From: Clostridium phage slur17
DNA: 41,318 nt
Sequence record: LN881738.1
Reading direction: 5' to 3' (one strand)
Shown piece by piece: positions 2,679 through 18,419 of this stretch. A program made the position numbers and the translations under genes. Each line of letters begins with the position of its first letter. Positions within the stretch are counted from its first letter, which is position 1. The notes below the pieces were generated by a model. The model ran no database searches. It was given only the letters and a program-made list of their open reading frames with translations, and had not been told where the DNA came from.

Positions 2679-3007
2679 ATCATACTTAATGTGTTGCGCT
2701 TTTACATTAATATACCCACCTAGATTTTTTGATATATAATAAATTCTAAAAAGCTGGTCTTTGTAGTCGGGCGAAGTATCAGCTTTAATTAATCTATCTA
2801 CTTTTATTTCTTTAAATAAAAAAGAGTCTTCGTAGATAGTAAATTCTAACTCGAAAACTCCGCTTTCTTCCTCTCTAACATGGTCATTTATTACATTCGT
2901 AAGAACACCTAAACCTAAATGCCTAAAATCTGTTTCTTTTTCTTCATATAAAACTAATTTTCCTTTTTGAATAATTAATCCCTCCCTCCAAATTTTAATT
3001 TAAAACT

Positions 3008-13369: not shown

Positions 13370-14443
13370 CTACCCTCTCGAAATAATTCTAGCGATAGGT
13401 ATAGCCTTATGGTTTATATAAGTTTTAGACCCATTCGAACTATCATTCACAAGCTCCCAATTTGCTCCGTTTTTCAGTTCTGCATCAGTTGGAGATGCTG
13501 TTGCAACTGCTTTTTTAGTAAAGCTAATACCATATGGCGCAAATACTTTTCTTTGTCTACTATATAAGTAATCTTCTCCACCATTTTTACCTGGAGCCCT
13601 ATCCATTTCATATGGGACTTTTGCACCAACATCCTCGAAGTCAATAGAATTTTCCCCAAGCACATATGTTGTATACTCTGTGTATCCATCATTTGAACCC
13701 TCTGAACTTTCAGCGACCTCTCTAGTTGGCATATTGTCATCAATTAAGACTAATTTGCCACCCCAAGTTCCTAACTTCATCTCCCTTTGAATACCTTGTG
13801 GGTCAGTATATTTTAACCTAGCAACAAGATTTAAATTTTCTAAGTTAGTTGATATAACACTGTGCATTATAACAAGTGCAAATTTTTCTTTATTATCTCC
13901 ACAAGCTTTTTGAGTTGCACTATTAAGAGTTTCGGCTTTAACCTTTTGATTTTCTGTTTCTGCTTCTTTCGTTATATCAAAAGTATGATTGTCAACAAAT
14001 TCTAAATTTTTCGCCCCTGTCATTGCGAAAATACCTTCCAGAACAGCTAACAAAGTTTTTTGGTCTATATTATCCCAATATTTAGCAACTTGATTTCCTA
14101 CATTCTCCATAAAAGGAACTCCGCCGGTTACGTCCTGGCTAAAGTCTTTTTCCACCCACGATTTAGCTCTACCAACAACAATTACAGACTGCGAAAAGGT
14201 CTTTGTTGTAGTTGCTACTATATCCGTTTGTCCGTCGTAATTGACTGGGTCGCCATCAATCAAGCCAAGCATTGGAATAGTTGCATAATTTGCTCCCGAT
14301 TGGGCTGAAAACATAGCCTTTAAATCGTCCCTTCTTCTTATTGCTCCAGACTTTATTAATTCGTCCCTATTTAGATTAGGTACAGTCTCAACGTATTTTC
14401 CAAACACTTCTCCATTAAAAATTTTTGAATCAAATAAACTCAT
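13370..14443 (-). CDS. Major capsid protein
   Basis: 357 aa; follows the coiled-coil scaffold gene and precedes the connector genes. Confidence 0.7.
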   Translation of the reverse strand: MSLFDSKIFNGEVFGKYVETVPNLNRDELIKSGAIRRRDDLKAMFSAQSGANYATIPMLGLIDGDPVNYDGQTDIVATTTKTFSQSVIVVGRAKSWVEKDFSQDVTGGVPFMENVGNQVAKYWDNIDQKTLLAVLEGIFAMTGAKNLEFVDNHTFDITKEAETENQKVKAETLNSATQKACGDNKEKFALVIMHSVISTNLENLNLVARLKYTDPQGIQREMKLGTWGGKLVLIDDNMPTREVAESSEGSNDGYTEYTTYVLGENSIDFEDVGAKVPYEMDRAPGKNGGEDYLYSRQRKVFAPYGISFTKKAVATASPTDAELKNGANWELVNDSSNGSKTYINHKAIPIARIISRG

Positions 14444-14453
14444 TTTCTACCTC

Positions 14454-15026
14454 CTATATGTTCAACATTTCTCTATTTTTTGCTATCATTTGTTCCATTA
14501 AACTTACTTTAGACTCTCCAGCATCTCCACCGCTAGAACTAACAACCTTTGGAACACTATTGCCATTTATAAAAGCCCCTGGGTCATTTGCCTGCAATTC
14601 TTTTATATAATCATCTGCTCCCTCAAAAGCCCCGTTCTTATATTCAAGTCCCTTCTCTTTCATTTTTATTTTTACAGCCTCTTTTGAGAGATTGCTAGAA
14701 AACTTAAAATTACTTAAATAATTATCTAAATTTAAGTTATAAGTTTGCTCTGACATTTGATTTTCAATCAATTCCTTATCTTTTTGAGCCTGTTCGGCTT
14801 TACTCTTCCAGTCATCAACCTCTTTTTTTATACTCTCAACATCTATTTTTTCTAAGTCTTTAATTTTATTATTAGCTGTTTCGAGTTCAGTATTTTTACT
14901 TTCCAATTCTTCTTTTTTCTTTTCTACTTCTTTTTTATACTTTTCTATATCCCTCCCATTTTCGGACATGATTTTTTCTATAACCTCATCCTCTAAATTT
15001 AAATCTTTCAAAAACTCTCTTTTCAT
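14454..15026 (-). CDS. Scaffolding protein
   Basis: 190-aa strongly Glu/Lys-rich coiled-coil protein directly upstream of the capsid gene. Confidence 0.6.
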   Translation of the reverse strand: MKREFLKDLNLEDEVIEKIMSENGRDIEKYKKEVEKKKEELESKNTELETANNKIKDLEKIDVESIKKEVDDWKSKAEQAQKDKELIENQMSEQTYNLNLDNYLSNFKFSSNLSKEAVKIKMKEKGLEYKNGAFEGADDYIKELQANDPGAFINGNSVPKVVSSSGGDAGESKVSLMEQMIAKNREMLNI

Positions 15027-15157
15027 AAAAACCTCCTGTTTTCATTTACAATTACGCTTTTTTACGTGGTAGCATCACATATTGTCTAACTTTTTACGTC
15101 GCTTAGTAGACATCTATATAAATGAATTAAGTATTTTAAGCATAAAAATAAGTCTTA

Positions 15158-15439
15158 TTAATATAAGACTTCCTCATATGTTTCTCTAAATATATCAGCC
15201 TTGCATGGATATAGTTCTCCTTTTATCCCTTGAATAATGTAATCACCTACATTAGCCTCGTGTATACCTTCAAGCGTCTTTATATACATGCGTGGAGATA
15301 ATTCCCCTAGACTCTGTTCAATCCAAACATTGCCACTCTCAATAGCCTTAACTATCCATATTGGTTCTTCCTTTTGTTCTATACTTCCTAGCCATTTAAA
15401 AGCTTCAACAGTAACTGGCTTCTTTCTATATTTCCCCAT
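15158..15439 (-). CDS. Hypothetical protein (moron in head module)
   Basis: 93-aa ORF (MGKYRKKPVTVEAFKW...) between minor head protein and scaffold genes; a 9-bp-stem hairpin (about 15141-15165) overlaps its stop codon. Confidence 0.45.
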   Translation of the reverse strand: MGKYRKKPVTVEAFKWLGSIEQKEEPIWIVKAIESGNVWIEQSLGELSPRMYIKTLEGIHEANVGDYIIQGIKGELYPCKADIFRETYEEVLY

Positions 15440-15454
15440 TTAAAGCACTCCTTT

Positions 15455-15805
15455 TTATAAAGCATCTAATTCCATAAATACTTTTAGCATTTTAGGAAAC
15501 TGTATCGCAAAATAGTCAACCATTTCCTCGTTTCTAGCCCAATCGCTATTACTCTTTAACCCGCTTTCAGATAAAAAAGCATGTATAACTTCATGTCTAA
15601 GAACTTGTTTTTCATAAAAGTTCAAATCCTCTAAACTTTCATCTGAATGCTCCATTTTAGCGATTATAATCTTGTTTACAGTATCATCCATAAAACCATC
15701 AAATTTAACCATTAAAGGCTCTTTTTCTTTGGTACAATTTTTCAATATAGTATATTTAGTCCCTAATATTTCAACATCCATTTTATTTCTCCTTTTTGCC
15801 AGCAT
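15455..15805 (-). CDS. Small HExxH-motif protein (putative Zn metallopeptidase-like)
   Basis: 116 aa containing RHEVIHAF, a HExxH zinc-binding signature; overlaps the 3' end of the minor head protein gene. Confidence 0.45.
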   Translation of the reverse strand: MLAKRRNKMDVEILGTKYTILKNCTKEKEPLMVKFDGFMDDTVNKIIIAKMEHSDESLEDLNFYEKQVLRHEVIHAFLSESGLKSNSDWARNEEMVDYFAIQFPKMLKVFMELDAL

Positions 15806-17006
15806 AAACAGCCTTTTGGCTGATGCTCTTATTATATCCTAACACCTGGTGTCTATCATTCTGCAACCTCAATTTAGCAACCTTACTAAACTCTCTATAT
15901 TCTTGCTTCTGTCTTTGCAACTTTATACTTGCATTTGTAAACTCATCTTTAAGACCAGCAGACTCATAAGCAATTAGTTGTCTCTTAGTCTGCCTCATAG
16001 CTGTTTCAATTTTGCGCTGATACTGCAACGCTTGATAATGCGTATAAGTTCGCCCCTTATATCCAATATCGGGAGGGTCTATATTTTTTAATTGCTCTTT
16101 AGTGTAAGCAGGAACAGAGATACCAGGTACAACTGCATGAAATTGATGCGAACAGTTCCAACCTCCTAATCCATCACCCTGTCCCCAGCCTGTAACAGCC
16201 CTTAAAGAAGGGTATTTCGTACTTTTACCACTTAAACTATACCATTTGCCCTGCCATTTCTTATGATTTTTAATGCCTGCACCCTCGCACCTTGCCCCCG
16301 AGTGAGCTGTAACTTCTACTATATCAGTATCCAAATCCTCTATAACTTTATTATTAATATTCTGTGACATCTGATTAACACCAGTAAGCACAGCCCTTCT
16401 AGTTGCAACATCTATCCTATTAGCCCAGCCAGTTTCATAATCTATAAACCTTAAACCACTATCTGCAAGCCTCTTGACTGCTTTTTTAACTGCTGTCTTA
16501 TAATCCAAGACTCCTGTACTGACTTGAAATTGCGCTAAGTCTAAAGACTCTATATATATGTCTGTAAGTTTCTTACTAATAACTTTACCTTTTTTAATAG
16601 TACAAAATCCTAATGTACCTGTCATATTCTTCAGTTTACCCTTAGTTTGCTCTTTAGCTGAAGAAACATAGTTCTTAAGTTCTTCAGAACTATTCAAGTG
16701 TATTGGTGTTAATTTAGCATGTTCATATAAAGCACTATCACTTTCAATAGATTTTATAGCACTTTCTTCAAATAACTTGTCAACTGCCTCAAAAGAGATA
16801 CCAAGTATTTCAGCAATTTTCATTTTAATTACTTTATCAGCCATCCCAATCTCTTCTGCTCTTATTAACTGCCATTCTGCCATATCTGTAATATTCCCAG
16901 CCTTTGCAATACGTCTTGCAATATCTGCTATTACAAAGTCCTCTAAAGTTTGAAATAAGCCAATAAAATACTTAGGAATTTCTTGTAACTCATTAGGTGT
17001 TAACAT
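15783..17006 (-). CDS. Minor head protein (phage Mu F-like / SPP1 gp7-like)
   Basis: 407 aa immediately after portal; contains GWNCSHQF, consistent with the conserved Cys-containing motif of the Mu F head morphogenesis domain. Confidence 0.65.
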   Translation of the reverse strand: MLTPNELQEIPKYFIGLFQTLEDFVIADIARRIAKAGNITDMAEWQLIRAEEIGMADKVIKMKIAEILGISFEAVDKLFEESAIKSIESDSALYEHAKLTPIHLNSSEELKNYVSSAKEQTKGKLKNMTGTLGFCTIKKGKVISKKLTDIYIESLDLAQFQVSTGVLDYKTAVKKAVKRLADSGLRFIDYETGWANRIDVATRRAVLTGVNQMSQNINNKVIEDLDTDIVEVTAHSGARCEGAGIKNHKKWQGKWYSLSGKSTKYPSLRAVTGWGQGDGLGGWNCSHQFHAVVPGISVPAYTKEQLKNIDPPDIGYKGRTYTHYQALQYQRKIETAMRQTKRQLIAYESAGLKDEFTNASIKLQRQKQEYREFSKVAKLRLQNDRHQVLGYNKSISQKAVYAGKKEK

Positions 17007-18419
17007 CTATATACCATCCTTGTCAAAAGGATTATCCTCTACTAATTCCCCCGTGTCGGGCATCATTTTCAAAGCCTCTTCCTCTGTGACTCCATATTTT
17101 TTCATAATATACAATTCGGGTCTAATTAATCCAGATGCGACATCCTGTTGCATTGCTAAGAGTTCAGAATCTTTGTCTATTATTACGCTATCGTCCCAAT
17201 TAAAAGTCGTTTCATACTTCAAACTAGGAGTAAATCCTGCCAAAATAGACCACTTATCTATAGAATAAATTAATCCCTCTAGGGCATCCTCTAAAGACTT
17301 TTGTATATCCTTAACAGTAGAGTATAAACGTTGCTTACTAGTTTTTATTTCTGTTGCTGTTTTTTCAATCTCTTGTGCATCTGATATAATCCCGTATGAC
17401 AATCCACAATTGAACTCTATTTTTCTTAGTAATTGATTAAGCCCAGCGTAAAGACTCGAATCCCTTATGGCTGGTGAAAACACATTCCATTTATTGTCTC
17501 CATCCTCCATTTCTAACATCCTGTACAGTCGTTTCTTGCCATGCGGAACTTCATATTCTCCATTTGCGTTTCTTCTGAACATACTAGAATCTGCATCAAT
17601 TGCTATCTCTGTAGCCTCATACTCCCACAAAATCCTCGAATATTGTTTATCAGCCTCTTTTATTAAGTCAACTGCTCTTGAAAAAACAGAAACGCCCAGA
17701 GCTGATGAGTTTTCTAAACTATTAGCCTGCGGGATTTTAAAGTATGCAAATAAAGGTCTTTCAATTCCTTCTAATACTAACTCTTCTGAAAGCTCTGCCC
17801 ATTCGGGAACATCACTTAATCTAATTCTCTTCCCTAAGTCATTTGAATAACCAATTAATCTTGCTGTATTACTCTTATATGCGTAATTAGAGATAGTATA
17901 AGAAGTAGAAGTCCAATTATGATATTCTAATCTGGTATATTTAATATCACCTTTAACTTTTATTTCAGAAAAAATAGCTGATGTAATATCACCTGTAGAA
18001 CTATATTCAACAGGGAAAAAATTACTTGCCTGGACATAATCAACTTCTATTTTATTCCTGCCTATATACGGTTTAAATACTAATCCACCAGCCACACACG
18101 CATATTCACAATACTTTCTTATGTCTTTCAATACCTCTTGATATTGTTCATTTAAAAAGTCATTTCCAACTATTTCACTTTCAAGTTCTAGTGTAACAAG
18201 GCGTGCAACTTCACTTGATATTGCACTTGGCAAATTCAAACTCTTAGTTGTTTCATTTAACCACGGGGCTTTGTTTTTGTACATAGCCATCCACGAGTCA
18301 ATTGCTCTTGACATCTTATCACTAACAGCTATATCTACCTTTAATTCATTTTGTATAGAACTCTTATTAAACAACTTGTTAATCACCCCCCTTATAGCAT
18401 TTTTCAATCCTTCAAACAT
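17007..18419 (-). CDS. Portal protein
   Basis: 470 aa; abuts the large terminase stop codon with no gap. Confidence 0.75.
   Translation of the reverse strand: MFEGLKNAIRGVINKLFNKSSIQNELKVDIAVSDKMSRAIDSWMAMYKNKAPWLNETTKSLNLPSAISSEVARLVTLELESEIVGNDFLNEQYQEVLKDIRKYCEYACVAGGLVFKPYIGRNKIEVDYVQASNFFPVEYSSTGDITSAIFSEIKVKGDIKYTRLEYHNWTSTSYTISNYAYKSNTARLIGYSNDLGKRIRLSDVPEWAELSEELVLEGIERPLFAYFKIPQANSLENSSALGVSVFSRAVDLIKEADKQYSRILWEYEATEIAIDADSSMFRRNANGEYEVPHGKKRLYRMLEMEDGDNKWNVFSPAIRDSSLYAGLNQLLRKIEFNCGLSYGIISDAQEIEKTATEIKTSKQRLYSTVKDIQKSLEDALEGLIYSIDKWSILAGFTPSLKYETTFNWDDSVIIDKDSELLAMQQDVASGLIRPELYIMKKYGVTEEEALKMMPDTGELVEDNPFDKDGI

Follow-up and report, generated by a model that had tools for sequence, protein, structure and literature searches.

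The 41,318-nucleotide stretch of Clostridium phage slur17 DNA analysed here (LN881738.1; hereafter the window) carries a short gene in its head module, CDHS1_5 in GenBank (15455..15781, minus strand), whose stand-alone product of 108 residues contains an HExxH motif and is predicted to adopt a minimal zincin layout. We consider it probable that this product is a cytoplasmic mini-zincin, borne on a 342-bp cassette, which provides an accessory, moron-like late function by cutting what is most likely a host protein. The same reading, held as a whole, has the cassette inserted through microhomology between ribosome-binding sites (RBSs) and start codons, and takes the adjoining 93-residue gene, a member of a very large phage family, to be an independent cassette gene that is just as exchangeable. 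Should this prove true, few self-contained zinc proteases would be smaller than the mini-zincin, and its gene would be a very common accessory in phages of gut Firmicutes.

The HExxH gene and its translation signals

The original prediction, made from the letters of the window, had described a 116-residue protein carrying RHEVIHAF as the product of one of two small genes that it placed in the head module; the corresponding open reading frame (ORF) is at 15455..15805 (minus strand). Both genes do lie there, on the minus strand between a MuF-like gene and the scaffold gene. For the HExxH gene the coordinates of the mechanically called ORF and the motif stand, but the length does not, as the true product is 108 residues long and begins at the second ATG, at 15781. 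The longer ORF starts 23 nt within the upstream gene, which encodes minor capsid protein 2, a "short" MuF-like protein (15783-17006, minus strand; PF06152, E = 3e-100). ATG 15781 is the start used by GenBank for CDHS1_5 and by every Clostridioides difficile homologue; it lies 1 nt past the MuF stop codon and has an AAGGAG 8 nt upstream, within the last MuF-like codons (15789..15794, minus strand). An RBS inside the end of one gene and a start codon 1 nt past its stop imply translational coupling, by which the mini-zincin would be made with the late head proteins. In RNA sequencing of CDHS-1 all phage genes were expressed during infection, the structural genes from mid to late, with no gene-level statement on the HExxH ORF in that report (PMC8619979). 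A programmed frameshift fusing the MuF-like gene to the 116-residue ORF was considered and set aside, since it would require a +1/-2 shift and the homologues favour the internal ATG.

The codons CAT GAA GTT ATA CAT (15581..15595, minus strand) encode H63, E64 and H67 of the 108-residue protein, the predicted zinc-binding and catalytic residues, and the NEEMVD codons (15515..15532, minus strand) encode N84 to D89, including E85, a candidate third zinc ligand. This HExxH is the sole instance among window ORFs of at least 50 residues, where chance would yield about 0.085 occurrences over the full ORF set and 0.0008 over the 108-residue protein.

Conservation of the mini-zincin family

The protein is a member of PHROG 1233 (E = 5e-26), to which no function is assigned. 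A word-indexed search returned 114 homologue clusters; a HMMER scan of 1.84 billion representatives of 50%-identity clusters returned 2203 relatives at E <= 1e-3, 1645 at E <= 1e-10 and 180 at E <= 1e-30; and more than 591 loci in IMG/VR hold a relative. The family is very widespread, its clusters at 50% identity numbering over 2000, and has neither a Pfam family nor a solved structure. Conservation of the motif, which the original prediction had named as a check on its idea, is nearly complete: HExxH is retained in 113/114 and in 148/149 homologues (261/263), two family members having lost a motif histidine. Across 202 aligned members the signature reads R62-H63-E64-x-[IV]-H67-A-F-L-x-E72-S73-G74-L75 ... 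W81-A-x-N84-E85-E86-x-[VI]-D89-x-x-A92-x-Q94-x-P96-K97, in which H63, E64, H67, S73, G74, L75, D89 and K97 are conserved at about 100%, E85 at 99% and E72 at 98%, with no conserved histidine past H67.

Nearly all relatives are stand-alone proteins of 103-125 residues, and apparent N-terminal extensions are mis-called starts. The longer relatives had been considered as evidence of fusion to MuF or other domains and of cargo delivery; this was rejected, as they proved to be mis-called starts, tandem duplicates or single odd fusions. The tandem duplicates (P0235, P0274 and P0236; 216-252 residues) suggest that the stand-alone proteins could act as dimers.

Predicted fold and placement among the zincins

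AlphaFold2, run on a 42-sequence alignment, gave a model of high confidence (predicted local distance difference test, pLDDT, 92.5; predicted template modelling score, pTM, 0.84). A beta-sheet subdomain of four strands precedes the predicted active-site helix (residues 53-73), which carries the HExxH; a loop and a second helix (85-104) opening with NEEMVD follow, and the model stops at residue 108 with no extra domain. As modelled, this is a minimal zincin layout, and the original prediction of a possible small zinc peptidase is supported by the sequence signature of a zinc metallopeptidase together with the predicted fold. Searches with Foldseek against the Protein Data Bank (PDB) returned nothing below E = 0.69, the non-significant top ranks being PprI/IrrE, selecase/jannalysin, anthrax lethal factor and Wss1, so that the fold searches point to zincins in kind and only weakly in degree. 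Searches of all PDB sequences with phmmer and with the family profile gave nothing or beta-lactamase noise.

In thermolysin-type gluzincins (M4), which carry HExxH ... NExxSD, the glutamate is the third zinc ligand and the aspartate hydrogen-bonds the first histidine. The mini-zincin likewise has an N-E-x-x-x-D about 18-20 residues past its HExxH, opening the next helix, and the conservation of E85 and D89 at the start of that helix would fit the M4 pattern. We infer that zinc is bound through H63, H67 and E85 with E64 as general base, which would make the protein a metallopeptidase or amidase of gluzincin type. Unlike the mini-zincin, M4 enzymes are secreted proteins of at least 300 residues with a large C-terminal domain, and they give no hidden Markov model (HMM) match or significant fold match to it. 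Also among the nearest known systems are the minigluzincins (proabylysin, projannalysin and selecase), archaeal HExxH+E peptidases of about 105-110 residues; compared with these, the mini-zincin shows no detectable sequence kinship, is borne by phages, has its own signature (ESGL...W.xNEExxD..A.Q.PK) and lacks an evident zymogen tail. A literature search found nothing relevant on phage HExxH anti-defence proteases, on phage minigluzincins or on PGDYG, a domain weakly resembled by the product of the neighbouring gene (see below).

The sub-threshold Pfam matches of diverse members are nearly all to zincins, led by BSP (38/90) and SprT-like (24/90), with M13, DUF4344, DUF2268, M78 and M91 each matched by a few members. 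These matches bear on two further possible identities: an anti-repressor protease of the ImmA/IrrE type (M78), the original prediction having offered an ImmA-like protein among its options, and a DNA-protein-crosslink protease of the SprT/Wss1 type. The SprT-like profile (PF10263) is matched below threshold by 7/42 members (best E = 4e-5) and by 24/90 (best E = 8e-4), and the EExxDxFAxQxP segment of the mini-zincin appears to resemble the ExEANxFAxxLLxP segment of M78. Set against this, the window protein itself matches neither profile, and the HMM check proposed for the M78/ImmA-like and SprT-like families came out negative, with neither threshold reached. The M78 profile (PF06114) finds none of 42 members at E <= 0.1 and a single one of 90, at E = 0.03. 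Compared with ImmA, IrrE and CapP, the mini-zincin is half the size, lies in the late head operon outside the lysogeny module, and has no repressor or cognate helix-turn-helix (HTH) partner; compared with SprT-like, Wss1 and Spartan proteins (PF10263) and with BSP (PF04450), it scores below gathering thresholds and lacks a conserved third histidine and a DNA-binding region or extension. With the profile search of PDB sequences also empty, either assignment is quite unlikely. The ImmA-like proposal thus holds at the level of the zincin superfamily and not at that of M78, and we regard the mini-zincin as an unclassified family of that superfamily, not a demonstrable member of the M78/ImmA or SprT groups.

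An optional cassette in the late operon of C. difficile phages

The window between 13000 and 19800 is, in reverse complement, 100% identical by megablast to CDSH1 (KU057941), a C. difficile siphophage of the genus Leicestervirus. Relatives of this phage allowed the gene's neighbourhood to be compared in a four-phage DNA alignment (CDSH1, phiCD111, phiCD38-2 and phiCD146), with AR1075-1 compared by megablast. CDSH1 and phiCD111 carry a segment of 342 bp (15440..15781, minus strand), comprising the mini-zincin ORF and a 15-nt spacer with the RBS of the next gene, that is an exact indel relative to phiCD38-2 and phiCD146. On each side it is flanked by the repeated sequence AAAAAGGAG...AAATGG, which contains an RBS and start codon. 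Megablast aligns AR1075-1, phiCD146 and phiCD38-2 (which shares its International Committee on Taxonomy of Viruses, ICTV, species with CDSH1) to the region as two segments separated by a gap, their flanks being 93-95% identical (about 95% for phiCD38-2). Among C. difficile phages, tblastn found the mini-zincin in CDSH1 and phiCD111 only, and the genomes of phiCD38-2, AR1075-1 and phiCD146 hold no paralogue.

The slot is filled differently in different phages. In phiCD38-2 the MuF-like gene is followed immediately by the homologue of the 93-residue gene (88% identical), which is served by the same RBS. In phiCD146 (locus L003) an 86-residue gene of the N4 gp49/Sf6 gp66 family (2687-2947, minus strand; PF13876, E = 9e-21), unrelated to either window gene, replaces both. 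Conservation across the phages restarts exactly at a hairpin at the end of the 93-residue gene. The cassette indel, the PF13876 replacement and the resumption of conservation at the hairpin together define the interval from the MuF-like end to the hairpin as a variable slot that accommodates one or two small genes, which can be exchanged. Between CDSH1 and phiCD111 the ratio of non-synonymous to synonymous substitution rates (dN/dS) is 0.15 for the mini-zincin and 0.11 for the 93-residue gene, showing purifying selection on both. Their synonymous rates (dS 0.25 and 0.33) are 2-3x those of the flanking MuF-like (0.10) and scaffold (0.11) genes, as would be expected if the genes had separate histories and had been exchanged in mosaic fashion.

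These comparisons bear directly on whether the protein might be a capsid-maturation or scaffold-removing protease needed for head assembly, the first role that the original prediction had proposed. Its gene does lie between the MuF-like and scaffold genes, and one metagenomic relative, P0304 (302 residues; L090 483-1391), joins a weak N-terminal fragment of a Peptidase_S78 prohead protease to a mini-zincin domain. However, phiCD38-2, AR1075-1 and phiCD146 have neither the gene nor a paralogue, although their portal, MuF, scaffold and capsid genes are essentially the same; that these sister phages are viable excludes a required role in capsid maturation. The position of the gene also varies from phage to phage, the 3-kb contig of P0304 contains small ORFs only and is not a head module, and the window protein matches no prohead protease (S78/S77/U9/U35-type) in Pfam, PHROG or NCBIfam. 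Heads of the SPP1 type with a PF06810 scaffold, moreover, assemble without a protease. We therefore regard a maturation protease as extremely unlikely, and the tempting annotation "head maturation protease" can be removed.

The other origin that had been suggested, acquisition as a moron, is supported by the clean presence/absence polymorphism among near-identical phages. Presence or absence among sister phages, together with the varied slots described below, indicates a dispensable accessory gene of the late operon. Like morons, it is a compact ORF amid essential late genes, here bracketed by a putative promoter (a promoter-like site) and a putative terminator (a hairpin with U-run); unlike them, it is apparently coupled by translation to the late operon and not independently expressed, and it is unusually restricted to packaging and head modules. 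CDSH1 and phiCD111 with the gene and phiCD38-2 without it form natural isogenic pairs in a tractable C. difficile system, so that its function can be tested directly, such as a part in host range or counter-defence that would bear on C. difficile phage therapy.

Genomic context in other phages

Named phages already show how widely the position of the gene varies: it lies between portal and MuF in C. perfringens phage HMD-PC1, upstream of the terminase in Blautia phage Montmirail, between the large terminase subunit (TerL) and portal in Roseburia phage Jekyll, among head-tail connector genes in Flavonifractor phage Chenonceau, and in a nucleotide-metabolism region in Fusobacterium phage phiFN37. 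We surveyed 80 IMG/VR loci by calling ORFs, clustering the neighbours and annotating the main clusters with PHROG; the mini-zincin was called in 69. In 65 of these 69, a packaging or head gene is found no more than three genes away and on the same strand. The slots comprise the position after the head-tail adaptor (17 loci), between a late regulator and the small terminase subunit (TerS; 8), between TerS and TerL (7), between TerL and portal (7), directly before TerL (6), between MuF and scaffold (5) and between portal and MuF (1), with the remaining loci in smaller or unannotated slot classes. At least eight different packaging/head-module slots are used in other phages, and the gene is positionally promiscuous while being strongly tied to the packaging and head part of the late operon.

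This bias leaves room for a role alongside head components, the protein either acting with them or being packaged with them. SPP1 gp7/MuF proteins and the internal proteins of T4 are packaged in the capsid and ejected with the DNA, and the mini-zincin could similarly be injected as an effector protease, disabling host defences when the next infection begins. The proximity to packaging and head genes whatever the slot, and in CDSH1 the translational coupling to a MuF-like gene, would be in keeping with this, as would the C-terminal metallopeptidase domains found in 20% of MuF polymorphic toxins (PMC5576092). Some loci pair a long, HELGH-bearing MuF with a mini-zincin gene: in L053 (2516-4309, plus strand) a MuF of 597 residues with a C-terminal HELGH metallopeptidase-like domain is encoded two genes upstream of the mini-zincin, and L052 and L057 are further cases. 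Yet the mini-zincin profile (A1) gives no HMM-level match to that HELGH domain, none of the 150 best representatives is fused to MuF, many copies do not adjoin a MuF gene, and the phiFN37 copy lies in a nucleotide-metabolism region. Delivery with the DNA accordingly seems to us unlikely on present evidence.

Proposed function of the mini-zincin

The reading that we favour, an accessory mini-zincin acting in the cytoplasm, would proceed as follows. Produced with the late head proteins, the protein would hold zinc through H63, H67 and E85 and use E64 as its catalytic base; its most likely substrate would be a host protein in the late infected cell, a phage protein being less likely. It would confer a conditional advantage and not be essential, with counter-defence as its most plausible use. 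One more specific version would make it a mobile one-gene counter-defence cassette, produced or packaged with terminase, portal and capsid, that cleaves immune sensors or effectors triggered by those late proteins, while the PGDYG-like neighbour may be a second, ligand-binding anti-defence module sharing the same slots; we give this version a fairly small chance. Identity with AcrIB2, the anti-CRISPR protein of phiCD38-2, was considered and rejected, as the AcrIB2 gene sits after the lysis genes.

Several observations weigh against our reading. Scans of the window protein against Pfam, NCBIfam and PADLOC reached no threshold of any curated HMM, with no Pfam match below E = 0.06; the only matches were spurious, namely DUF6756, BSP (E = 0.15) and a TLA beta-lactamase model that scored 18.6 bits where its cut-off is 640. 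The counter-defence use is conjectural, there being no PADLOC match, conserved partner or known target. E72, at its level of conservation, could replace E85 as third ligand, and the bias towards packaging and head modules is unexplained by a generic moron model. Finally, in the tandem duplicates P0235 and P0274 the second copy lacks HExxH (e.g. RKDIIYCYIWECGL), from which it follows that non-catalytic roles exist within the family.

These degenerate copies, together with the two members that have lost a motif histidine, would also be expected if the protein were small and non-catalytic, with a structural, decorating or regulatory role, and had simply kept a zincin-like scaffold. The near-absolute conservation of the HExxH residues, E85 and D89 in more than 200 diverse members is by contrast typical of an active site, and a gene that is optional cannot encode a core structural protein. 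A non-catalytic function for the window protein is thus very unlikely.

The 93-residue neighbour

The gene downstream of the mini-zincin, CDHS1_6 (15158..15439, minus strand), encodes the 93-residue protein, which had been left unassigned in the original prediction and remains so: it matches PHROGs 419, 4502 and 1810, none with an assigned function, has no Pfam match at E <= 1, and its family matches no solved fold. The family is very large, with at least 7980 clusters at 90% identity (E <= 1e-5) and homologues in 848 GenBank phage records, all annotated as hypothetical, whose sources include SPO1-like Bacillus phages, T4-like Acinetobacter phages, mycobacteriophages, and streptococcal and staphylococcal phages. 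Its signature is KKPV.VEA.K/Q.....P.W...A......I.TLEG...A..GDYII.G..GE.YPCK.DIF..TYE. Weak matches to PGDYG (PF14083) occur in 14/36 homologues (best E = 5e-4), the window protein falling short of the threshold, and the two share a C-terminal GDY(I/V)...GE.YPC..D.F..TY motif. We know of no function for PGDYG.

Two fusions offer hints. In P0233 (161 residues) the PGDYG-like domain of the 93-residue family is joined to a Tad2-like Thoeris anti-defence domain (PF11195, E = 5e-15), and in PHROG 4159, annotated as nucleotide pyrophosphohydrolase, a domain of this type is N-terminal in a MazG-like fusion. These hint at a nucleotide- or ligand-related accessory role for the family, and at nothing further. 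Genes of the 93-residue type and mini-zincin genes are adjacent, in either order, in HMD-PC1 (L004 3682-3945 and 3986-4324), L075, L079 and L083. An obligate functional pair was nonetheless rejected, because the two families occur within 5 kb of each other in only 5/80 IMG/VR loci, which we read as a sharing of cassette slots.

Flanking genes and RNA elements

The gene order on the minus strand is TerS, TerL, portal (17007-18419; PF05133), the MuF-like minor capsid gene, the HExxH gene, the 93-residue gene, a gap of 131 nt, the gene for the head scaffolding protein (14454-15026; PF06810) and that for the major capsid protein (13370-14443). The gap (15027-15157) is nearly invariant in CDSH1, phiCD111, phiCD38-2 and phiCD146, exceeding the flanking coding sequence in conservation. 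It contains a full-length match (15053..15112, minus strand) to the GP20-b RNA (Rfam RF03003), which scores 55 bits where the gathering threshold is 36.2 (E = 6e-12). This RNA is known from positions ahead of scaffold genes of the GP20 family as a candidate cis-regulatory element, and the window copy is a candidate leader of the scaffold gene.

The hairpin that the original prediction saw at the end of the 93-residue gene is confirmed. It has a perfect 9-bp stem (AAGUCUUAU/AUAAGACUU; 15150-15171, minus strand; -11.9 kcal/mol, z = -2.85), and reaches over the stop codon, with a U-rich tail, AUUUUUAU, after it and extended pairing over 15141-15180. All four aligned phages keep it, and a stem change in phiCD38-2 and phiCD111, from U-A to U-G, preserves the pairing. 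The hairpin is AT-rich and was not called by a terminator scan based on G+C content. It closes the variable slot on the right-hand side and might weakly terminate or attenuate transcription. What lies between the MuF-like and scaffold genes can accordingly be described as a slot for cassettes, with the conserved hairpin and the GP20-b leader RNA at its border.

On the other side of the slot, the 3' end of the MuF-like gene holds a small G+C-rich hairpin, CAGCCAAAAGGCUG (15809-15822, minus strand), and the best candidate sigma-70-like site of the region, ATGATA-17-TATAAT (15831..15859, minus strand; 10/12 positions), although promoter-like sites in the region are no commoner than in shuffled sequence. 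With the hairpin downstream, these two elements would form a putative moron-like bracket of promoter and terminator around the slot.

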